A program made the translations under genes and the position numbers. A stretch of 63,907 nt of DNA, counting the filler, from Candidatus Woesearchaeota archaeon (GTDB lineage Archaea; Nanobdellota; Nanobdellia; Woesearchaeales; DATGWN01): the NCBI GenBank assembly GCA_047603125.1. It is 6 parts of 6 records of this genome, joined end to end, with 100 filler letters (N's around TTAATTAATTAA, not from the genome) between each part and the next. Parts side by side here need not be neighbours in the genome. Positions count along the whole stretch, not along the records: positions 33,615 to 44,501 come from JBLKOU010000038.1; 5 more parts are not named here. One strand, written 5' to 3'. Positions 33,615 through 45,061 of this stretch are shown in pieces; position 1 is the stretch's first letter; each line of letters opens with the position of its first letter. The notes under the pieces were generated by a model. It was given only the letters and a program-made list of their open reading frames with translations. It was not told the origin of the DNA and did no database searches.

Positions 33615-34103
33615 TAGATATATATTAATCTTTCGGTTTTTACCAAAATTTATCAAAAATTAAGAAAAAGTAGACTTTTTACGTACTTTTTAATTGTTTA
33701 GAATTTGCCTTTTTTTGATAAGGTATGTGAGTGTTCGGCTTTTTAAAGTCGGATGCTTAAAAAACATATTATTTTTCAGCTAGCACGAAACGGTGAAACT
33801 TACTTATTTTTGAGTTTGCAGCCATTTCACCGGCTCCCCAGAAAACCTCTGAATCGTTAGAATTAATACAGTATTTGGTATATTTTTATGTTTATAAGCA
33901 ACTATTTTTTAATGAGAAACAACACGAAAACTGTACTGGAGAGTCCCACTTCCAGTACTTTGCCACAATTTTGGCTGCATGAATCGCCAAATTGTGTGAT
34001 GGTGTTTCAAGGTGTTGTTTCTCCCAACATTGATTGGCAAAAGGATTTCCATGCTGCCTTCTCACCCATACATTTTTAAATGCGTTTTTTCCAAATTGAC
34101 TTC

Positions 34104-34580
34104 ATGGAATATGTTGTTGTAAAAAAATCAGGGATACACAATAAAGGGGTATTTGCAAAACAGGATATAAAACGAGGTACACATATTATTGAGTATGTGG
34201 GAAGAAAAATCACAAAAAAAGAGTCTGATGCAATTGCAGATAAACAGCTTGAAAAATCAAGAAAAAATGCTGAAGATGGTGCTGTGTACGTGTTTACATT
34301 AAACAAACGATATGATATAGATGGTAATGTTTCATGGAATCCAGCAAGATATATCAATCATTCTTGCTCTCCAAATGCACAAGCCGTTATTGACAATGGT
34401 CACATTTGGATTGTGGCAACAAAACGAATACAAAAAGGAGAGGAAATCACATACGATTACGGGTATGATGTAGATAATTACACGGAACATCCTTGTCGCT
34501 GTGGAAGCAAAAATTGTATTGGGTATATTGTTGCAAAAGATCAGTGGCCAAAACTCAAGCGTCGTCTTCGATCTCAATAG
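34104..34580 (+). CDS. SET-domain protein-lysine methyltransferase
   Basis: SGIHNKGVFA, RYINHSCSPN, GEEITYDY, post-SET CRCGSKNC. Confidence 0.93.
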   Translation: MEYVVVKKSGIHNKGVFAKQDIKRGTHIIEYVGRKITKKESDAIADKQLEKSRKNAEDGAVYVFTLNKRYDIDGNVSWNPARYINHSCSPNAQAVIDNGHIWIVATKRIQKGEEITYDYGYDVDNYTEHPCRCGSKNCIGYIVAKDQWPKLKRRLRSQ

Positions 34581-35892
34581 ATTGGCCATTAACAAGTAAG
34601 TGAAGCGTCTGTCCTAGTATATACCCTTCTTGTTTTGCTAAAAGTGCATACGCATCCATCATAGGGAGTTCACCATGTGCTGGTATGACATGTTTTGGCT
34701 TGATCGTTGTCAAAAGTTCTCGTAAATCCTCATATGACGCATGACCAGAGACGTGCACATCTTTAAAGAGACGTAATCCGAGTGATTCGAGTTTTGCATC
34801 AAGTCTGTGACGCGCCTCGATAATAGATGGTGTTGGTATCACATTACAAGAATAAATAAAAATATCATTTTTATCAAAAACGAGTGGAAGTTTTCCAGTT
34901 GCAATCGCATTTAAGACTGCTTTTTCTTCTGCTTGATGACCAGTCATAACAAACACATATTTTTGCTTTTCATTATTTGCCATGATTTTTTTCAGTCTTC
35001 GCTTAATCATTGATCGATAGGGAACAATTTCTACATCATCAATGATTTTGCTGACTTTTGCTTTTTTTGCACTCGAGGTATATTTTTCTAAACTTCGACC
35101 AAAAAAGATGACTTTTCGTTTGAGTCGCTGCGCATAGCGAACTATTGTTTGCAGTCGCTCAATATGTGAGCTAAATGTTGTCAAAAAAATCCCTTTTTTT
35201 TGCAAGTCAGTTGTAAATAAAATATCTTCAAGCATATGTTTTGCGACAAGTTCGGATTCTGTTTTGGTTTGTTTTTGTGCACGTAAACACTCACTTATCA
35301 AAACAATAGGATTTGATAATTTTTTTTGCAATTTTTTGAGTGCTGGTTTTTTTCCAATTGTTGGATGTCTATCAAGTTTGAAATCATTGGCGTACACAAT
35401 TTGTCCATAGGGTGTGTGAATAATAATAATGCCTGTGTCGGGAATTGAGTGTGTAATTGGAAAAAATTCAAAGGAGAGTGTGCTGCTCAATTTCACTTTT
35501 TTTTCAAAGGGAGTGACGCGAATTGGATTTTTTTGTTTAAAATTATTATCTTTAAACTGTCGCTTAATAACTTGGGCAGTAAATGGCGTTGCATAAATGG
35601 GACATGAGTAACCCTTCTCTAAATGCGGTATTGCGCCGATGTGGTCAAGATGTCCGTGGGATGGAATAATTGCTTTTACAATTTTTTTATTAATATCGCT
35701 ATCATCAGCGACAATACCACTTGTTCGCAATAATGTATTTTGCAGTTTTACAAGTTCCTCGTCATGCTCAACAGTTACGAGTCGTTCCATATGATAACCC
35801 ATATCAAGAATAATTGATTCATTATCAACTGTTACTAGTGTCATATTTCGGCCTATTTCTCCATATCCTCCGATTGGTTGAATTTTTATCAT
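34555..35892 (-). CDS. rnj: RNase J (beta-CASP)
   Basis: GGYGEIGRNM, SHGHLDHIG, HSIP, TFSSH, HVSGHA, IPAHG. Confidence 0.92.
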   Translation of the reverse strand: MIKIQPIGGYGEIGRNMTLVTVDNESIILDMGYHMERLVTVEHDEELVKLQNTLLRTSGIVADDSDINKKIVKAIIPSHGHLDHIGAIPHLEKGYSCPIYATPFTAQVIKRQFKDNNFKQKNPIRVTPFEKKVKLSSTLSFEFFPITHSIPDTGIIIIHTPYGQIVYANDFKLDRHPTIGKKPALKKLQKKLSNPIVLISECLRAQKQTKTESELVAKHMLEDILFTTDLQKKGIFLTTFSSHIERLQTIVRYAQRLKRKVIFFGRSLEKYTSSAKKAKVSKIIDDVEIVPYRSMIKRRLKKIMANNEKQKYVFVMTGHQAEEKAVLNAIATGKLPLVFDKNDIFIYSCNVIPTPSIIEARHRLDAKLESLGLRLFKDVHVSGHASYEDLRELLTTIKPKHVIPAHGELPMMDAYALLAKQEGYILGQTLHLLVNGQSIEIEDDA

Positions 35893-36695
35893 AATTGTGT
35901 CACCGTCCAAGTTTCTGTATCTAAGAGCATAATATTTTGTAATCCTGTGTTAATGCAAAGTGTCTGCTTCATTCGCCTGTTTCCTTTTGTTTCATGTATA
36001 TGTCCGCAAATAACCATTTTTGGCTGATAGAGCGTGATGAGCTTTTTTACAATTTGACTTCCTACACGAATTGTTTTTTTTGCAGGCGTTACGATTTTAT
36101 CAAATGGCGTTTTATAAGGAACATTATGTGTGAGCAAAATAATGGGTTTTTGTTTTTTTTGCGCACGTTCCATGAGTTTTTCCATTCTTGTATATGTTTT
36201 AACATATCGTTGAACAATTTTTTTAATTTGTGAAAGTGTATATTGGGAAATGGCTTGCTTTGTCTGTGGATATTCGGGAGAGGAAGTATTTCCATAGCCA
36301 ATGATACAACACGGACCTACATCAATGAGTTTTTTATCGCAATTTGTCATGTTTTTATATAGGTATGTTTGTTCATAGTTTTTCTTGCTTTTTTTTGAAA
36401 TTTCACGCAGAGTCATATCCCAGTTTCCAGGAATGCAATACACGGTTTTTTTCAGACTGGACAATTTTTTGCTCATCGCTTTTCCTGAAGCAACAAGTTC
36501 TCGCAAAAGTTTATTTTTCTTTGCAGGACGAACCAACTCTTCCCAAGAAACGCCTAATTGAAATGATTTATTAATGAGGGGGCGAATTTTGGAATCATCA
36601 CCCAAATCTCCAACAAAGAGCACTGCATCATATGCGATTCCTTTTGGAATTTTGGGCATCTTGCCGTGAATATCTGCAAAAATGAGCAATTTCAT
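35889..36695 (-). CDS. Metallophosphoesterase (Icc-like)
   Basis: DIHG, GD, PGNWD, H..P, GHIHE. Confidence 0.85.
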   Translation of the reverse strand: MKLLIFADIHGKMPKIPKGIAYDAVLFVGDLGDDSKIRPLINKSFQLGVSWEELVRPAKKNKLLRELVASGKAMSKKLSSLKKTVYCIPGNWDMTLREISKKSKKNYEQTYLYKNMTNCDKKLIDVGPCCIIGYGNTSSPEYPQTKQAISQYTLSQIKKIVQRYVKTYTRMEKLMERAQKKQKPIILLTHNVPYKTPFDKIVTPAKKTIRVGSQIVKKLITLYQPKMVICGHIHETKGNRRMKQTLCINTGLQNIMLLDTETWTVTQL

Positions 36696-36821
36696 AGTTT
36701 TTTTCTATTTGTCGCCGTATATAAATGTTTGTGTGGGGAGTTATTATTCTCGACGAGTGAGAATTTTGGCGACCGCAAAGTATATAAAGAAAATGGCTAA
36801 ACCAATTGATGGGGGAACAGT

Positions 36822-37568
36822 ATGAAACTTAGTTTAACAGAACCAAAATTTTTCAAAGATAGTATATCAATTATATCTGAATTAGTTACAGAGGCACGTT
36901 TTACCATCGGGCCGCAAGGTATCACGCTTGTTGCAATGGATCCTGCCAATGTCGCGATGGTGATTTTCAAATTGTTGCCATCTTTATTTGCAGAATACCA
37001 ATTAAAAGAACAAGTCGATGTCAGTTTGAATTTAAATAATCTCAAGCAGATTCTGCGACGAGTTGGTTCGAATGAAGTATTAACAATTGAGCTTGAAAAT
37101 AATGCAAAGCTTATTTTAACAATTTCTGGCAAATCAACACGACGATTTTCCTTACCGATAATCTCAACAGAAGAGAAGGAACAAAAAACTCCAACATTAG
37201 CGTTTCATACAACAATTGTTATGAATGTCGATCGATTTAATGAGGCAGTTGAAGATGCAAGTATTGTTGCGGATTCTCTTGTATTACAAAGCGATGGAAA
37301 TAAATTTATTGTCAGTGCCGTTGGTGATATGAATAATGCTGATATTGAAATGCCGGCAGAGGAGAATTTGAAAATTGAAAGTGAGGATGAAGATGTTGCA
37401 AAGAGTCGGTATTCAGTTGAGTATTTGAAAAAAATGGTCGGCGGAAGTAAGCTTAGTGATACGGTAAAAATTCAGTTTAAAAAAAATTATCCGCTCAAGC
37501 TTGAATATGTTTGCACTGATAAAGTACAACTTTCATTTGTTTTAGCACCTCGTGTTGAACACGAGTAA
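36822..37568 (+). CDS. pcn: DNA sliding clamp PCNA
   Basis: AMDPANVAM, YSVEYLKKM, PLKLEY, LAPRVE. Confidence 0.96.
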   Translation: MKLSLTEPKFFKDSISIISELVTEARFTIGPQGITLVAMDPANVAMVIFKLLPSLFAEYQLKEQVDVSLNLNNLKQILRRVGSNEVLTIELENNAKLILTISGKSTRRFSLPIISTEEKEQKTPTLAFHTTIVMNVDRFNEAVEDASIVADSLVLQSDGNKFIVSAVGDMNNADIEMPAEENLKIESEDEDVAKSRYSVEYLKKMVGGSKLSDTVKIQFKKNYPLKLEYVCTDKVQLSFVLAPRVEHE

Positions 37569-37577
37569 TTTTTTCTT

Positions 37578-37841
37578 ATGGAAAATATTGAGTATCTTAT
37601 TGGTCAGTATTATCGTTTTTTAGATGGAAAGGAAATTTCTCGTTATTTGGAGCCTGTTTTTGAAGATGTGCTGAGGTTTGCTGATCGTGGTTTTCGCGTC
37701 GAATATCTGGATAGGAGAATTAGTCATAAACTTTATCGGGCAACCTTGTTGCACCAATATGGCTTTGTTGGTAAGAGTTTTGAGCAAATTTGTAAAGAAG
37801 AAGGGATTGCTTTAAATAAGAGAACACCTGTACAACCGTAA
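37578..37841 (+). CDS. Hypothetical protein
   Basis: 87 aa; operonic between pcn and the HAD gene. Confidence 0.6.
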   Translation: MENIEYLIGQYYRFLDGKEISRYLEPVFEDVLRFADRGFRVEYLDRRISHKLYRATLLHQYGFVGKSFEQICKEEGIALNKRTPVQP

Positions 37842-38851
37842 TGACAAAAAAAATCCATATTCCTATTTTCTGGGACGTTGATCTGACTATTACTGAGCAA
37901 TATCAGCAAATTCCCTTTTTTTTACAGCATGAAGCGGCAATTAAAGAAGCATGTGAACAAGAAGGTATCCGATATGTCGATCCATATTCATACTTTTTCC
38001 GCTGTGATATTTTGGGTGATCCGGGTCTCAATTATTTACAACGCATGGTTTTGGATTGTCAAAAGGGTGGAATATTTGAAGGGTTAAAAACAGCGCAATT
38101 AAAAGAAACCGCAAAAGATGTCCAACTTGCACCTGGCTTAAAAGAATGTATGTTGGAGTTAGAACGCCTCTTTAAGGATAGGGCGATTTTACATCATTTT
38201 TTTGTATCAGTTGGTATAAAACATATCATTGAAGGGATTGTTCAGGTGCATCAACTTCCAGTTACAGATATTGTTGCTTCTGAATTTTTAACAGATGAAA
38301 ATGATACTATTATCGGCATTAAACGCGTTGTGACTCCATTTACAAAAAATCAATGGATTATTGGTGCAATGAAAGGGGAGGATTCCCTTTTAAACACTGC
38401 ATTATCTCCTGAACAGTATCGCTATGAATACAAGAACATGATTGTTATTGGTGATGGAAAAACAGATGCTGCAAAATTTGCTTATGCAAAAAAGCGGGGT
38501 GGAACGCCGGTTGCAGTCTATAGAGCAGGAGACCAGCAAGCATATGCGAAAACAAAAGACGCCGTCGGTTCCTGGGTTGACTTTGTGCTCGAACGAGACT
38601 ACACGCCGGGCAAAAAAACATTTTCGTACCTTTGTCAAACAATTGAGAAAAAACTCCAACAAGAGTCTATGATAAATCCAACACTTTTGTATTATTATGC
38701 TAGAAATAAATTAACACATCCTGATGAGATTGCATTTGTCGAATCGTTTTTGAAAAAAAATCCACGAGTGAATGCCTATTTTGAAAAAGTGTTTGTGGAC
38801 GCTAATCAGCAAGTGACTTTTGGGAGCTATTTAGAGCAAAAGCGCGAGTAA
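37841..38851 (+). CDS. HAD-superfamily hydrolase
   Basis: DVDLT motif I, VSVG, K, IGDGKTD motif IV. Confidence 0.8.
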   Translation: MTKKIHIPIFWDVDLTITEQYQQIPFFLQHEAAIKEACEQEGIRYVDPYSYFFRCDILGDPGLNYLQRMVLDCQKGGIFEGLKTAQLKETAKDVQLAPGLKECMLELERLFKDRAILHHFFVSVGIKHIIEGIVQVHQLPVTDIVASEFLTDENDTIIGIKRVVTPFTKNQWIIGAMKGEDSLLNTALSPEQYRYEYKNMIVIGDGKTDAAKFAYAKKRGGTPVAVYRAGDQQAYAKTKDAVGSWVDFVLERDYTPGKKTFSYLCQTIEKKLQQESMINPTLLYYYARNKLTHPDEIAFVESFLKKNPRVNAYFEKVFVDANQQVTFGSYLEQKRE

Positions 38852-38897
38852 TTGCTAATCCGTCACATATATAAATCCGAACATTTTCTAATCTCAT

Positions 38898-39089
38898 ATG
38901 GCTACAAAACGGCTGACAAAAGATATGAAGCGCGCAATGATTGCGGGCGTGTGTAGTGGTATTGCAAAATATACTGATCAAGATCCAACAGTCATTCGTT
39001 TGATTTATGTTTTGTTGCTATTTCTGACAGGTATTATTCCAATGGTTTTTGTGTACATTATTTTTGCCATCATCATGCCTGAAAAATAA
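38898..39089 (+). CDS. pspC: PspC-domain protein
   Basis: MIAGVCSGIA..DPTVIR..YI..IIMP. Confidence 0.88.
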   Translation: MATKRLTKDMKRAMIAGVCSGIAKYTDQDPTVIRLIYVLLLFLTGIIPMVFVYIIFAIIMPEK

Positions 39090-39129
39090 ATCGATAAAAT
39101 TCTTAAATACAAAGGTTTTTTCTGCATTC

Positions 39130-40050
39130 ATGGAAAACGTAATCATAGTAGGGGCGGGCATTGCAGGATTAACTGCAGCAATTTACACGGCAAGAGCAGA
39201 ATTAAAACCGTTGGTTATTTGTGGGCCTCAAGATGGTGGACAATTAACACTAACGACTGAAGTTGAAAATTATCCTGGATTTGAAAAAGGAATTACTGGT
39301 CCTCAATTAGTAGCTGATACAAAAAAACAAGCACAGCGTTTTGGCGCACGATTTCAAGAAGGATGGATTACCTCGATAAAAAAAGAGAATGATACTTTTC
39401 ATATTACACTTTCAGATCAAACAATTATTGAATCAAAAACAGTTATTTTAGCAACTGGGGCTTCTGCTCGTTGGTTGGACATCGAAAGTGAAAAGGCATA
39501 CAAGGGAAAAGGTGTAACGGCATGTGCGACTTGTGATGGATTTTTCTTTAAAGATCAAGAAGTTATTGTCATCGGTGGTGGTGATACGGCAATGGAAGAA
39601 GCACTATTTTTAACAAAATTTTGTACAAAAGTAACAGTTGTTCATAGGCGCGACGAGTTGCGTGCGAGTAAAATTATGCAGGAACGATTTTTCGCTCATC
39701 CAAAGACTGATATTATCTGGAATGCCAAAGTTATTGAAATTTTAGGAGATGGCACAAAAGTTCAGGGTGTGAAACTTGAAGACACAAAAACGGGGGAGAC
39801 TCGTGAATTTCAAACGGATGGTGTTTTTCTTGCAATTGGTCATATTCCCAATTCTACTTTTGTTAAAGGACTTGTTGATATGGATGAACAGGGCTATGTG
39901 GTTGCAGACAGATATACAAAAACAAATGTCGAAGGTTTGTTTGCGTGTGGCGATTTACAAGACACTCGGTATCGACAAGCAGTAACTGCTGCAGGCAGCG
40001 GTTGTCAGTCTGCAATTGAAGTTGAGCGATATTTGGCTGAGAGGGAGTGA
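39130..40050 (+). CDS. trxB: Thioredoxin reductase
   Basis: GAGIAG, GGQL, CATCDG, GGGDTA, HRR. Confidence 0.95.
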   Translation: MENVIIVGAGIAGLTAAIYTARAELKPLVICGPQDGGQLTLTTEVENYPGFEKGITGPQLVADTKKQAQRFGARFQEGWITSIKKENDTFHITLSDQTIIESKTVILATGASARWLDIESEKAYKGKGVTACATCDGFFFKDQEVIVIGGGDTAMEEALFLTKFCTKVTVVHRRDELRASKIMQERFFAHPKTDIIWNAKVIEILGDGTKVQGVKLEDTKTGETREFQTDGVFLAIGHIPNSTFVKGLVDMDEQGYVVADRYTKTNVEGLFACGDLQDTRYRQAVTAAGSGCQSAIEVERYLAERE

Positions 40051-40133
40051 AATGATGCGTATGAGTGTGAACTTGTTTTCTTCCCCTATTCACATAAACA
40101 TACATTTTTAAAGATTGAAGATACAATATAGGC

Positions 40134-40835
40134 ATGACAAAATCAATGGCTGGTTTTATATCAGCGCTTGTAGTATTGTTTTCTCCAATACTTCTCATTT
40201 TTCTTCTTATCCCCATAGGCTTGCTTTCTAATGTATTACTTCTACCGATAGCGAGTTTAGCTGGTATTTTCATATTAATTGTATTTATTTATTCGATTGT
40301 GAGCTGTATTCGAGGCATAAGCCAAAAAGATAAGCATCGTGGTTTTGCAGTTGCAGGGCTTTTGATTAACGCAATATTGCTCTTTTTTATTTTACCCGTT
40401 ATTGCTCTTGTTACTGTTGGAGTCACGAGTGCAGTACCGCCAATAGGTGCAAGCGAGGCACCCTCAGCCAACCATATGTTCTGGGCTACTTCACAAATTG
40501 CCATATCGCACGCAGAATTTGGTGATGGTGTGCAAGATTCACTTCAAATTCGAAATAATAGGCCAACAACAATTATTATAACAGGAGTCTATCTGGATGA
40601 CAATCTTATTTCGGATGGAACGTGGACGGACCGAACACTCAATCCAGGTACTCCTTGGACATTTCGACAAACTTCAAGCGGTAATCAAGACTTTATTTTA
40701 GCAAATATGTTTTCTTGCCCGACTGGCTCCTCATATGCTGTTGCTGTTCGAATAGAATATACTGATCCGACAACGGGCAATTCCCATCAATTTCCACCGC
40801 AAGGCATGACGACATTTGATGGAACATGTCGTTAA
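40134..40835 (+). CDS. Membrane protein with C-terminal pilin-like beta domain
   Basis: Three N-terminal TM helices; 'LQIRNN..TIIITGV' beta domain with a C-terminal Cys pair. Confidence 0.6.
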   Translation: MTKSMAGFISALVVLFSPILLIFLLIPIGLLSNVLLLPIASLAGIFILIVFIYSIVSCIRGISQKDKHRGFAVAGLLINAILLFFILPVIALVTVGVTSAVPPIGASEAPSANHMFWATSQIAISHAEFGDGVQDSLQIRNNRPTTIIITGVYLDDNLISDGTWTDRTLNPGTPWTFRQTSSGNQDFILANMFSCPTGSSYAVAVRIEYTDPTTGNSHQFPPQGMTTFDGTCR

Positions 40836-40889
40836 TTTTTTTTTTTTTGAAACGAAAGGTTTAAATTTCTTCTTCCATTCCCTTTTTTA

Positions 40890-41492
40890 ATGAAACCACC
40901 AATTCGTATGCGTATTGACCAATGGTTGTATCGTGAAACACCCGTCGAATGGTTTGCACCAACGCGCACAATATATGATCCCTTAGATTCACAATTTCGT
41001 GCATCAGTTGCATTTCTACGAGATTTTTCTCTTCAACTTGAACCTCGATATATGATGTGGACGCCATCGGTGAATTTAGATAGATCGTGTACATCTGTCT
41101 TTCTTCAAAAGTCTCAAGGTTCTGAATTATTAGACAGAATAAAATCCTTGGGGTTAGAAAATGAAACACAATATTTTGTTAGTGATGATTATGATGTGCG
41201 AGGTGGGACACGCTCTTTTCGAGTAAATGATAATCCTGGCGCAGTACATTTTTTTACGGGAGTTCGCACAAAAAAACAGCCCGATAGTGGTGAGCCTTTT
41301 GCAGCAAATTTTTATCGCCATACCTCTTTTGGTCGTATGACTTTTTTTCATCAATATGTTGAAAAAGAAGCAACCAAAGCAATAAAGCACACAAGGCATA
41401 TTAATTTAGCACCCTATGTGAGAAATGGCCTGCCTCGTCAAATTGAACCGGCAGATACAAAGAAAACAGTTACATTAGAACAATTACGGTAA
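40890..41492 (+). CDS. Hypothetical protein
   Basis: 200-aa ORF with upstream TATA-like box. Confidence 0.6.
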   Translation: MKPPIRMRIDQWLYRETPVEWFAPTRTIYDPLDSQFRASVAFLRDFSLQLEPRYMMWTPSVNLDRSCTSVFLQKSQGSELLDRIKSLGLENETQYFVSDDYDVRGGTRSFRVNDNPGAVHFFTGVRTKKQPDSGEPFAANFYRHTSFGRMTFFHQYVEKEATKAIKHTRHINLAPYVRNGLPRQIEPADTKKTVTLEQLR

Positions 41493-41552
41493 GACATTTG
41501 CATATTGTTCAAGTGCAGCAATTTCAAACCTATGCGCAAAGTATTAGTCAAA

Positions 41553-42056
41553 TTAGGGAGTAAGAACTCTTTCTCTGAGTGTGCCATATAATGGCCATTC
41601 GGATTTATTTGCTCTTCTCTCATTCTCGGCTCTTTCTTCCCTATAACGATCCCAATCAAACTCTGATTCTCTAAGAATGTCTAAATTATGTGCAAATATT
41701 CTGAAAAGATCACGTTGTGGTGCAAAAACAATGTTATATGTACGCGTTCGTGAGAATTGATTATTCCGATTTGACACAAAATACCATAGTTTTGCAAATT
41801 GGCCATCATTTTTTGTCAAAAGCACACCATCAAGTCCGCAGTTTCTTCGAATATCTGCAATATCAATGACTTTTGGACGAAGGCCGTATTCTTGAGCATG
41901 TATTGCAAGTTCTGGAACAAATGTAGGCGGCTCGTCACATCGAATGAGTCCAAAACCAGTTGGGCGTTCATAGGCATGTGTATTCAAAAAATCTATTACA
42001 TGAGCATCATATGACCGTTGTTGAGCTTTTCTGGTACTTTCTAAGTAGAGTTTCAT
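41553..42056 (-). CDS. Hypothetical protein
   Basis: 167-aa ORF. Confidence 0.6.
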   Translation of the reverse strand: MKLYLESTRKAQQRSYDAHVIDFLNTHAYERPTGFGLIRCDEPPTFVPELAIHAQEYGLRPKVIDIADIRRNCGLDGVLLTKNDGQFAKLWYFVSNRNNQFSRTRTYNIVFAPQRDLFRIFAHNLDILRESEFDWDRYREERAENERRANKSEWPLYGTLRERVLTP

Positions 42057-42102
42057 GTATTACTTTAGATGTTTTATCCTTATATTTTTTTCGTAAAATG
42101 AC

Positions 42103-42210
42103 TAATCGATAATAAAAAATTATAATACCTTGGCGCTGAATCAGAATTTCGCGAAGCTTGGCACCGGAGAAATTCGCAAGATGAACCGCTGTTCAAAAAT
42201 CGCCGCATTA
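42103..42210 (+). mobile_element. Degenerate MITE family A, short variant
   Basis: CCTTGGC..AATCAGAATTT..GCACC..CAAGATGAACC shared with 69-134; boundaries approximate. Confidence 0.5.
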
Positions 42211-42284
42211 TAATTTACATAAGAACCTTTTTTCCATTAACTTTATTAATAAAAAAGAGAAAAATTACCTGAGAGGTTATACAA

Positions 42285-43256
42285 ATGGCAAAAATAGCAT
42301 TTTTTGATGTTCATGATTGGGAAAAACCCTATCTAAAAAAACAACTAGCAAAGCACCAATGTCTCTTTTTTAATGAGAGCTTGACAAGTAAACATATATC
42401 TAAAATTAAGGATGTCGACGCATTATCATTATTTGTCCATTCCCATGTTGAAAATTCTCTTCTAGAAAAATTGCCAAATGTGAAAATCATTGCACTTCGC
42501 GCCACAGGTTTTGATAATGTGGATTTGCAGTACTGTGCAAAACGAGGCATTGCAGTTTGTAATGTACCCTTTTATGGGGCAAATACCGTTGCAGAATACA
42601 CATTTGCGCTCTTACTTGCAATTTCACGAAAGATGACACAAACAATTATCAATTCAGCAAAACAAGATTACACACAAGTTACTGGTTTTGATTTACAGGG
42701 AAAAACAATTGGTATAATTGGTGGCGGTCATATTGGTCAGCACGCAATTCGTATAGCAAAAGGCTTTGGTATGAATGTTCTCGTATACGATGTTATACAA
42801 AATGAATTCAATGCAACAACGCTTGGATATACCTATGTGTCATTGCCACAACTTCTCAAACAATCCGATGTTATTTCTTTGCATGCGCCTTATAATAAAT
42901 ATACGCATCACATTATTAACAAGAAAAACATTTCTTCTGTTAAAAAAGGAGCGGTGCTTCTCAATACATCCCGTGGAGGGTTAGTGGATTCGGATGCGCT
43001 CTTAAGTGCATTAAATAAGGGTCGTATTTCATTTGCAGGATTAGACGTACTAGAGGATGAAAATTCGCTATTAAAAGGAGAAAACGTTTCAGCCTCAGTG
43101 AAAGCAAGAAATAAGAAATTGGCAACGCATAAACGAGTCTTATTTACTCCACACAATGCATTCAATACACAAGAAGCACTTGTTCGTATATTAGATGTTT
43201 CTGTTGAGAATTTACAAAAAGGATTGGCTGGAAAAATACAAAACAAAGTCAATTAA
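42285..43256 (+). CDS. ldhA: D-isomer 2-hydroxyacid (D-lactate) dehydrogenase
   Basis: RATGFDNVD, GGGHIG, NTSRG, LDVLE, TPHNAF. Confidence 0.88.
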   Translation: MAKIAFFDVHDWEKPYLKKQLAKHQCLFFNESLTSKHISKIKDVDALSLFVHSHVENSLLEKLPNVKIIALRATGFDNVDLQYCAKRGIAVCNVPFYGANTVAEYTFALLLAISRKMTQTIINSAKQDYTQVTGFDLQGKTIGIIGGGHIGQHAIRIAKGFGMNVLVYDVIQNEFNATTLGYTYVSLPQLLKQSDVISLHAPYNKYTHHIINKKNISSVKKGAVLLNTSRGGLVDSDALLSALNKGRISFAGLDVLEDENSLLKGENVSASVKARNKKLATHKRVLFTPHNAFNTQEALVRILDVSVENLQKGLAGKIQNKVN

Positions 43257-43270
43257 TTTTTTTTTTTCAA

Positions 43271-43639
43271 ATGACACAAGGTGTAGAAAAAGAGCGTGGT
43301 ATCTTACTTACAGGTTGGTTGGTAATAACTTAAATTGGTACTATTGTTGCTAACCTTGCTTATCTTTTGGTAGGTCCACAGACATTATTAGAATATTCCG
43401 ATATTCCTGTCTGGATTTTTCATGTTTCAACGTTTGTGAATTTTGCAAATTTTATTTTTATTATTTTCATCTTTTTTTGGAAAAAATGGGCATTATATGG
43501 ATATGTTGGTTTATCAATTCTGATGTTTTCTCTCAACATTGCGCTCCAAACTGTACCTTTTTCTACAGCGTTTATGGGACTTCTCGGGCCTCTGATCCTT
43601 GTTTTACTTTCTTTGCCTAAATGGGAATATTTTGAGTGA
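43271..43639 (+). pseudogene. Membrane-protein gene with in-frame TAA at 43331
   Basis: MTQGVEKERGILLTGWLVIT*IGTIVANLAYLL continues in frame into the 43367 ORF. Confidence 0.65.
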
Positions 43640-43647
43640 GGATTTTT

Positions 43648-44406
43648 TTAATCTAATGGATTTTTGATATTTTTCAAATTATGCTTTGCAACTCTCGTAT
43701 AAATTTGTGTTGTTTCAAGTCTTGCATGACCCAATAATGTTTGAATGTATCGCAAGTCAGTCCCATTTTCCAATAAATGTGTTGCAAAAGAATGTCGAAG
43801 CACATGTGGTGTGACTTTTTGTAGTATGTTTGCTCGTTTTGCTACTGTTGTTACCACTGATTGAACTGATTTTTTAGAATATTTTCCATTTTTTCCTCTC
43901 AAAACATATCCTTTTCCTTGCTTGTCCATTCTCTCAAGCACTCTTTGTGAAATAATTGTGATACGATCTTTATTTCCTTTTCCTTGTTTGACGAGTATGG
44001 TTTTATTTTCAAAATCAATATGTTCAAATTTGAGGTTAACCAATTCTTGCAATCGCAATCCGGATGAATAGAGTAATTCCACAATTATTCTGTGCTTTTC
44101 GTTTGTTGTACTATTAATCATAGCTGAGATTTGGTTTTTTGTTAAAATTATAGGAATTTTGGATTGTTTTTTTGGAATTGATACGCACGTTGATTTTTGG
44201 TTTAAGATTTTCTTTTCATAGAATGTGATTGCGGCTGAAATTAAACGTATTGTTTGAGGGGATTTGTTTTGATTTGTTAAGTATACTAAGTAATCACGCT
44301 TGTTTTTCTTTGAATTGAGAAATTTCTCAATATGGTACATATAGGCATTTTGCGTCTTAAGAGAAAAACCTCGAAGTTTCATTTCTTCAACGAGTTTTTG
44401 TAACAT
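43648..44406 (-). CDS. Tyrosine recombinase, XerA/integron-integrase-like
   Basis: LRGFS.KT..AY N-terminus, GLRLQE, GKGNKDR, HVLRHSFATHLLE.G.DLR.IQ.LLGH..TTQIY; no IntI-specific insertion visible. Confidence 0.93.
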   Translation of the reverse strand: MLQKLVEEMKLRGFSLKTQNAYMYHIEKFLNSKKNKRDYLVYLTNQNKSPQTIRLISAAITFYEKKILNQKSTCVSIPKKQSKIPIILTKNQISAMINSTTNEKHRIIVELLYSSGLRLQELVNLKFEHIDFENKTILVKQGKGNKDRITIISQRVLERMDKQGKGYVLRGKNGKYSKKSVQSVVTTVAKRANILQKVTPHVLRHSFATHLLENGTDLRYIQTLLGHARLETTQIYTRVAKHNLKNIKNPLD

Positions 44407-44449
44407 AACAAGTATGGTGAGCGACTTTTTTATATAAATAACTGCCTCA

Positions 44450-44501
44450 AATCCGAAAACTTTCCGGATTAAGTCTAAAAAAGTAGATTTAATACTTGTT
44501 A
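44450..44501. promoter_or_regulatory. Candidate recombinase binding/att site
   Basis: IR 44450-44470; IR ATTAAGTCTA-N6-TAGATTTAAT 44468-44493; TAA-TACTTG-TTA ending at the contig end. Confidence 0.55.
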
Positions 44502-44601
44502 NNNNNNNNNNNNNNNNNNNNNNNNNNNNNNNNNNNNNNNNNNNNTTAATTAATTAANNNNNNNNNNNNNNNNNNNNNNNNNNNNNNNNNNNNNNNNNNN
44601 N
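44502..44601. other. Artificial contig linker
   Basis: N44-TTAATTAATTAA-N44. Confidence 0.98.
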
Positions 44602-44662: not shown

Positions 44663-44768
44663 AAATTTTATTCATTAACTTATCCATACAGAATTTTTAT
44701 GAAATCGCCTTTATAAATTTCATGATATTTATGTGCTATTTTAGAGTAGAAACAAAACGCGTGTGAAA

Positions 44769-44849
44769 CGCCGCAACCCGGATTTGAACCGGGATACCCG
44801 AAGGTCACGCTTTCCAGGCGTGTGCAATACCAGATTATGCGATTGCGGC
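44769..44849 (-). tRNA. tRNA-Ser(GGA)
   Basis: GCCGCAA..TTGCGGC acceptor stem; CACGC-CTGGAAA-GCGTG; variable arm ACC-TTCG-GGT. Confidence 0.93.
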
Positions 44850-45061
44850 AGTAAATATTGTTTGTGATAACGCCATGAGCGTTAGCGAATGGTAGTAAAT
44901 GTTCAATCCTTTTTGAAGGTTGTGTGATAACGCCATGAGCGTTAGCGAATGGTAGTAAATGTTCAATCCTTTTTGAAGGTTGTGTGATAACACCATGAGC
45001 GTTAGCGAATGGTAGTAAATGTTCAATCCTTTTTGAAGGTTGTGTGATAACACCATGAGCG
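44850..45061. repeat. 60-bp tandem repeat, about 3.5 copies
   Basis: Unit TTGTGTGATAACRCCATGAGCGTTAGCGAATGGTAGTAAATGTTCAATCCTTTTTGAAGG. Confidence 0.95.

Follow-up and report, generated by a model that had tools for sequence, protein, structure and literature searches.

A Xer-type recombinase and its attI-like docking site as a probable cassette capture platform in a Woesearchaeota archaeon

In the draft genome of a Candidatus Woesearchaeota archaeon (GCA_047603125.1), a contig stops exactly at a site that resembles both a Xer dif site and an integron attI site, just upstream of a gene for a compact tyrosine recombinase. Is this an ordinary chromosomal dif site, cut off where coverage failed, or a place at which different DNA is joined? 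The stretch of DNA that we analyzed (the window, 63,907 nucleotides) consists of contigs strung together via artificial N spacers, from a source assembly of 70 contigs (G000). The recombinase and docking site lie at the end of contig C18 (10,887 bp; positions 33615-44501), which also encodes an archaeal PCNA, RNase J and thioredoxin reductase, and the stretch is present in eight public lake-water runs from two studies. What follows at 44502..44601 (N44, a 12-nt linker, N44) is a spacer between the unrelated contigs C18 and C19 and is not biological. Sequence past 44601 belongs to C19, which is unrelated to C18 and carries at its start a tRNA-Ser(GGA) gene (44768-44850, minus strand) and a 60-bp tandem repeat (44863-45061, 3.3 copies, 99% alike).

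The recombinase gene (43648..44406, minus strand) encodes a protein of 252 amino acids with a Phage_int_SAM_4-like N-domain and a Phage_integrase domain (Pfam, NCBIfam), and the alignment showed that the catalytic residues R118, K143, H201, R204, H227 and Y236 are invariant across 46 homologues. Its best NCBIfam match was the archaeal XerA model NF040815, at 203 bits under a cut-off of 220; the score against the IntI model TIGR02249 was 171 bits, below the cut-off of 265. The predicted structure (mean pLDDT 86) had XerA (4A8E and 5HXY) as its nearest folds and IntI4 (2A3V) as the next. An earlier note on this DNA had remarked that the extra insertion of canonical IntI appeared to be missing, and this proved correct: an alignment with IntI, XerC and XerD left a gap of about 46 residues against IntI in the I2 helix region, and the match to IntI4 2A3V was split. 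The nearest named homologue, at 72% identity, is from a Woesearchaeota genome, and phage and plasmid homologues were less than 40% identical over their full length. The Clostridium homologue inspected adjoins an IS91 transposase, a Persicobacter homologue is an unannotated record, and a metagenome scan returned at least one close relative among the matches listed. According to tblastn of the genome, this is the sole tyrosine recombinase detected in the bin, which was scored 100% complete.

The region between the start codon and the contig end contains several elements. A palindromic TATA box, TTTATATAAA, precedes the start codon by 23-32 nt on the minus strand; the palindrome had been described before at about 44428-44438, and its coordinates are here corrected to 44429..44438. 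From its position, this box likely serves the recombinase gene rather than the cassettes, and AT-rich boxes resembling it were seen by eye at the same place in several homologues. Two inverted repeats follow, both with 9 of 10 positions paired: a 10-1-10 repeat at 44450..44470 (AATCCGAAAA-C-TTTCCGGATT) and a 10-6-10 repeat at 44468..44493 (ATTAAGTCTA-AAAAAG-TAGATTTAAT). Both had been noticed previously as abutting, and they instead overlap by 3 nt. The first is alike in loci L001 and L054, and a loose pattern for it fits 15 of the 46 site-bearing loci, so it may be described as a partly conserved, putative accessory or regulatory element. At the position of the second, at least 7 of 10 bases are paired in 27 of the 46 site-bearing loci; taken alone, this repeat was matched or beaten by 16 of 2000 dinucleotide shuffles, and conservation of the site (see below) speaks more strongly against chance. 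Because its right arm doubles as the left arm of the crossover core, it is predicted to be an extra binding site for the recombinase.

The attI-like crossover core itself, AGTAGATTTAA-TACTTG-TTA, occupies 44482..44501 on the plus strand and ends at the last base of the contig, so that the dif/attI-like site, with its TAA-N6-TTA core, is indeed cut off at the contig break, as the earlier reading had it. It comprises an 11-bp left arm (44482-44492), a 6-bp spacer TACTTG (44493-44498) and then TTA. We predict that crossover occurs at G|TTA (44498/44499), a cut placed inside the TG|TTA that docking and cassette sites have in common, and the remaining right arm of the core (N5-AAT) would be supplied by the first cassette. 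A perfect 10-bp outer inverted repeat (44406-44415 / 44492-44501), which the earlier note does not mention, closes the whole upstream region and overlaps both the start codon and the crossover; it would reach 13 bp with the continuation found in runs X1 and X2 (see below). The region 44406-44501, which was picked after being seen, folded with z = -4.0, and none of 200 shuffles was as stable. However, the outer repeat is not conserved, being 10 bp here and 2-8 bp in the 45 other scored loci. It is therefore probably a local feature, and the reading of the upstream region as an attC-like hairpin closed by it was dropped. BLAST and a mismatch scan revealed no convincing second copy of the docking site in the bin, and Rfam gave no match in four loci.

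Next to the break itself, assembled reads from other runs were informative. Logan contigs from runs X1, X2 and X3, which are identical to the stretch over 44130-44501 or more, pass position 44501 by 285, 261 and 27 nt, respectively. Right behind that position, the overhangs begin with TGTGCAAT.. in X1 and X2, which belong to two studies, and with AACTCAAT.. in X3. Both continuations start with the cassette-start motif and fit GTTA-N5-AAT, a motif present at 37 of 43 homologous docking sites; in relatives, the starts TGTGCAAT and AACTCAAT follow GTTA at 2 and 1 of 49 hairpin sites and at 2 and 3 of 43 docking sites, respectively. Neither continuation was found in the bin, allowing up to 3 mismatches. 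This evidence consists of three assembled contigs at a depth of 4.8-7.0, the second form being a single contig with a 27-nt tip; the two forms differ between runs, each run having one form only, and one of these runs may be the source of the present assembly. Run X7 yielded nothing.

Contig ends near the gene are also one-sided in relatives. In the search of the order, contigs ended less than 400 nt upstream of the gene at 16 of the 29 best-scoring full-length loci, and at none of the 29 on the downstream side. Among the 140 contig ends of the bin, only the end at 44501 stops at GTTA. A break at a binned repeat was considered and rejected, since the terminal 40-mer recurs for 67 of the 140 ends and not for this one. 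The contig is thus confirmed to end at a cassette insertion site, and near-identical populations carry different DNA at the docking site, which is direct evidence from this locus. The proposal in the earlier note that the break reflects different DNA joined after GTTA, and that several continuations should be sought at 44501, is accordingly supported by the difference between X1/X2 and X3.

A recombinase homologue was found in 224 of 301 genomes of the order. At the top loci, reading away from the gene, the upstream sequence takes the form ATTAA..TTAAT-N4-GTTA, mostly 89-125 nt from the start codon. A docking-site matrix was made from 26 of 30 candidate homologous loci, with the window excluded and with three loci lacking the anchor and one seemingly out of register omitted. 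It scored the window site at 19.6 bits, against 10.3 for the best within-gene null; the invariance of the TAAT..GTT anchor is circular, because the anchor chose the training sites. In a tree of 148 tips (eleven duplicate or fragment rows omitted, P. abyssi XerA not in the tree, and related genomes being non-independent samples), the 49 site-bearing tips, of which 23 had not been used to train the matrix, all fell together with the query in one clade of 61 tips with a support of 0.98; 12 of the 61 score under the site threshold. All nine tips with a symmetric dif-like site fell in a separate clade of 20 tips (support 0.92), and IQ-TREE analysis of a 62-row subset chosen from those clades gave SH-aLRT values of 96 for the site-bearing and 98 for the dif-type clade. 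The same site therefore recurs upstream of orthologues, and the recombinase is placed outside the dif-linked XerA clade, both of which had been proposed as checks; a sister position of the site-bearing clade to IntI was not resolved by the tree.

Both types of recombinase co-occur in five genomes (G006, G018, G106, G161 and G168), and this, along with the separate clade, suggests that the dif-linked paralogue is likely the housekeeping XerA. In the dif-type clade, the symmetric dif-like site is beside or within ~300 nt of its own gene, and it lies upstream of the XerA gene at L036, L039, L045, L049, L050, L051, L052, L138 and L149. This layout recalls the xerS/difSL arrangement of streptococci, and these loci supply candidate dif sites for Woesearchaeota. 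No dif-type paralogue was found in the G000 bin, so the recombinase may have a second, housekeeping job there. A divergent member of the site-bearing clade, L046 (in G161), has short hairpin sites of 50 nt whose sequence is unlike that of the other members, two of them identical, and these make up a second site family inside the clade.

Upstream of the genes of the site-bearing clade, TAAC..GTTA hairpins recur in tandem and on one strand: 221 kb contained 47 of them (20 of 27 loci), compared to 2 in 285 kb near dif-type paralogues (2 of 20 loci). The 27 loci are those with at least 1 kb upstream, and 7 of them had no detected hairpin. Genes separated by TAAC..GTTA hairpins, for which a search had been suggested, are thus present as cassette arrays. 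The five bases before TAAC at the end of a cassette complement the five that follow GTTA where the same cassette starts, and not those at the next start. Over 5 nt, end pairing was 3.93 with the own start and 2.22 with the next, the permutation mean being 1.99 (sd 0.16), and none of 20,000 permutations reached the observed value. Pairing was perfect in 24 of 45 cassette pairs, and the own start beat the next in 37 and was worse in 4; 13 of the 45 match at no more than 3 of 5 positions, at least one of them (the first cassette of L034) due to a site missed by the detector. Such pairing is expected of circles that are opened and inserted at G|TTA. The first cassettes, next to the docking site, had perfect end pairing in 11 of 20 cases, which links the docking site with this reaction.

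The cassette sites have a characteristic build. Their right half is TAA-N8-TTA and their left half TAA-N6-TTA, the latter with exact spacing in 26 of 39 sites and with the outer ATT in none of 39. The arm consensus of 39 cassette sites, ACTTCTCTTAA, and that of 46 docking sites, ACTTCGTTTAA, have nearly the same left arm, and only the final two bases (TG) are consistently common to the 6-nt and 8-nt spacers. When the sites are folded, the best register leaves a 2-nt bulge in 34 of 39, and G-C, C-G and A-T pairs replace one another over 15 distinct stems, i.e., there is covariation across 40-110 nt. One exact cassette-site motif was present in 55 of the 301 order genomes and in 72 of 401 genomes from the phylum, tallies that include 4 and 1 unpublished genomes, respectively, and the reversed control occurred in 1 genome each.

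Cassettes had a median length of 1.3 kb, often contained several genes and ranged up to several kb. Their ORFs lie in both orientations (46 of 85 forward), and a TATA-like box preceded 14 of the 21 forward first genes, against a background of 8.7%. Four of 43 cassettes (L135, L042, L077 and L008; 228-1071 nt) were without an ORF of at least 60 aa. The first cassette of L134 (G168), of 2.6 kb, holds six similar-looking tandem ORFs of 63-95 aa and then a 290-aa ORF.

The source genome has two cassette sites of its own, C35:1220 and C35:7413, in an 11-kb low-GC stretch that is open at the contig start. Its cargo comprises methyltransferases, a glycosyltransferase, a carbamoyltransferase, an exonuclease, a beta-lactamase-family hydrolase and a cation efflux protein, and no replication or capsid family was among the annotated ORFs of the G000 array. 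We infer that C18 and the array on C35 are linked in this genome; no contig joining them was found. By the pairing rule, the cassette that ends at C35:1220 is predicted to start with GTTTC, which fits neither continuation, so that one or more further cassettes would separate the C18 site from it.

Several other repeated sequences were observed. The 6-kb cassette of C35 and an unrelated 6.8-kb cassette of G066 (L042) have a nearly identical non-coding leader with GGGGAGTTC boxes (C35:1310-1550), and L031 has a similar start. A dispersed MITE-like repeat family occupies ~135 places in G000 (e.g., C1:3139-3232), including the window contigs C14, C17, C18 and C19. One of its modules is bounded by GCATAAC..GTTATGC, with GAAATT coming next; this agrees, whether by chance or through shared ancestry, with the cassette-start motif GTTA-N5-AAT. 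This repeat passes a loose hairpin filter but fails the cassette-site matrices; it was therefore rejected as a cassette site and treated as a separate MITE-like family. Furthermore, several families of contig ends share 70-90 nt, with 5-8 copies each (e.g., C1, C2, C11, C21, C34, C39, C58 and C63; C10, C17, C30, C38, C51, C62 and C69), and these are probably the flanks of multi-copy elements absent from the bin.

Taken with the arrays, the locus is very probably a capture platform, with DNA joined at the docking site. That the platform, this particular enzyme and a single-strand route all apply together is a reasonably likely reading of the sequence patterns. The docking site would act as a duplex with a Xer-like core (arm, TAA, 6 bp, TTA, arm), next to which a further binding site lies toward the recombinase gene. 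The cassette site has a docking-like left arm and an 8-nt spacer and, as a duplex, would be out of register. If one strand folds, the 6-nt and 8-nt halves would pair to give a core of 6 bp, with 2 nt bulging out at a distance of two bases from the cut, and in this way the folded strand, unlike the duplex, would give a core in register with the docking site. The enzyme would then cut the bottom strands at G|TTA, and strands would be swapped via the two common bases (TG). A second exchange would be blocked by the bulge and the unmatched remainder, and the junction would be resolved by replication, with each new cassette entering beside the recombinase gene and older ones being displaced outward.

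This scheme has a precedent. CTXphi carries a pair of inverted dif-like sites whose centres are unequal; these fold, and XerC recombines them through one strand exchange (PMC3089051). In integrons, the I2 helix of IntI docks extrahelical bases and prevents a second exchange, and its deletion abolishes the function of IntI1 (PMC7790495); an enzyme that is lacking I2 thus needs another solution, and the 2-nt bulge and unmatched spacer may take over this role. Escudero et al. proposed that I2 originated in a Xer-like ancestor that single-stranded elements had hijacked (PMC7790495). More tentatively, and with somewhat less than even confidence, we suggest that the loci described here belong to a widespread DPANN lineage of integron-like platforms, with a plain Xer enzyme and with a 2-nt bulge in the substrate that stops the second exchange.

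Alternatively, the same platform and enzyme might take up cassettes as double-stranded circles or cruciforms and carry out two strand exchanges, as Xer does at dif and pdif. An enzyme that is XerA-like in sequence and fold, without an I2 helix, would suit such a route, as would the proper TAA-N6-TTA spacing of the left half (the 26 exact cases among 39), and the end pairing fits any circular intermediate. However, the joint that is observed involves the right half, with an 8-nt spacer against 6 nt at the docking site and two bases shared, and two-strand exchange normally requires matching spacers. The lack of the outer ATT from the left half in all 39 sites and the stem covariation over 40-110 nt also argue against duplex substrates, and we consider this route unlikely.

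Could the cassettes be moved by another enzyme, either a true IntI acting in trans or the dif-type XerA, so that the recombinase gene is a mere neighbour? Ghaly et al. list six Woesearchaeales genomes that have attC clusters without IntI, and state that such clusters are usable in trans (PMC9668308); in addition, many genomes of the order have the second, dif-type paralogue. However, no IntI above the cut-off was found in 301 genomes of the order, while the positive control was recovered (2 of 2), and the site tracks one recombinase clade, mostly at 89-125 nt from the start codon. G000 has an array, yet no other recombinase was detected in its bin. Moreover, the Nanoarchaeota attC that was recombined by IntI1 is of canonical build (PMC9668308), unlike the present sites. 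Altogether, involvement of another enzyme appears improbable, and the enzyme encoded beside the docking site likely has the role that we assign to it. The earlier idea of cassette capture or shuffling by a Xer-type enzyme in a DPANN archaeon is supported, and all of its proposed checks that were run turned out favourably.

The housekeeping reading, i.e., an ordinary XerA with a chromosomal dif site and a contig that stops from low coverage, is largely refuted and now very improbable. It is consistent with a sole tyrosine recombinase in a bin scored 100% complete, a best NCBIfam match to archaeal XerA (203 bits), a core with dif spacing and a low Logan depth. Against it, two continuations begin at the exact site, the right arm is variable, the protein falls short of the XerA cut-off of 220, contig breaks are one-sided (16 vs 0 of 29), and symmetric dif-like sites without arrays belong to a separate clade. 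The bin yielded no clear dif site, its best dif-matrix match scoring 19.6 bits, compared to 24-30 bits at dif-type loci. Finally, an accumulation of selfish, IMEX-like satellites exploiting a resolvase together with its site, rather than a host capture system, has the least to recommend it: the site architecture does resemble CTXphi attP1/attP2, and cassettes of several kb with their own promoters are possible, but the annotated cassette ORFs of G000 encode methyltransferases, a glycosyltransferase, a carbamoyltransferase and an exonuclease and include neither replication nor capsid families, 4 of 43 cassettes are without an ORF of at least 60 aa, and viral contigs gave 0 matches in a narrow test with one exact site pattern.

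The capture platform beside the Xer-type recombinase shares several properties with integrons: an attachment site at the 5' end of the recombinase gene, a G|TT crossover (inferred here), intact tyrosine-recombinase catalytic residues, tandem cassettes running outward from the gene, TAAC..GTTA hairpins in one orientation, and cassette ends that pair with their own starts. A linked array was seen at 20 of 27 clade loci; that of G000 is on another contig. The differences are also clear. The enzyme is without the I2 insertion and is ~46 aa shorter there. In its cassette sites, the stem is fully paired and a 2-nt bulge lies close to the cut, whereas attC has an unpaired spacer and L-box extrahelical bases, and the box bases beside TAAC and GTTA vary per cassette. 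Classical integron cassettes are mostly promoterless, single-gene and co-oriented; those described here are often multi-gene, lie in both directions and have their own TATA box. The system therefore likely works like an integron yet is not one, because the enzyme has no I2 and the cassette sites depart from attC anatomy. The tested Nanoarchaeota attC in the 2022 study of archaeal integrons and CALINs by Ghaly et al. looks canonical, and the present hairpins differ from it by eye; two short motifs of the present sites had 0 hits in the accessible supplements of that study (PMC9668308).

CTXphi likewise combines an I2-less Xer enzyme, inverted dif-like halves that have unequal centres and fold, and a double-stranded dif-like target (PMC3089051; discussed in PMC7790495), and the arm that a cassette supplies, TTA-N5-AAT, is similar to the dif arm TTATGTTAAAT (PMC3089051). 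However, the centres are 6 and 8 nt here, compared to 12 and 7 nt in CTXphi (PMC3089051), and the present system has one dedicated recombinase beside its own site and many unrelated cargo cassettes, with no phage replicon seen. IMEX of the CTXphi type are self-replicating and use the dimer-resolution enzyme and dif of the host; the enzyme here is a paralogue separate from the dif-type XerA. In sequence and fold, its nearest solved relatives are archaeal XerA proteins (Pyrococcus abyssi 4A8E and Thermoplasma 5HXY), with which it shares a single-enzyme system and an arm-6 bp-arm core (reviewed in PMC8371274), but it scores under the family cut-off, the symmetric dif-like site belongs to the other clade, and its own site has a variable right arm followed by arrays.

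Acinetobacter pdif modules, as generally described, also move accessory genes at Xer-type sites without IntI. They depend on the host XerCD, act between paired double-stranded sites and are found mostly on plasmids; here, long hairpins lie in direct order beside a dedicated enzyme. A literature search revealed no description of a system like the present one in titles and abstract openings, with few subscription papers covered, and none is described in the available text of PMC8138268 and PMC8371274.

The I2 insertion is treated as a defining, necessary feature of integron integrases (PMC9668308, PMC7790495), so that surveys keyed to IntI pass over this enzyme. The system may explain some of the IntI-less attC clusters that have been reported in archaea of this group. 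If the more tentative reading above is true, the platforms would be a living model of the step between Xer/IMEX recombination and IntI, or else a case in which the integron was invented independently, and the origin that has been proposed for I2 would become directly testable. As a single protein of 252 aa with short sites, the system should be easy to test and could become a compact tool for cassette assembly. Finally, given how often the cassette-site motif occurs in the order (55 of 301 genomes) and in the phylum (72 of 401), archaea with reduced genomes may commonly gain genes by capture of this kind.
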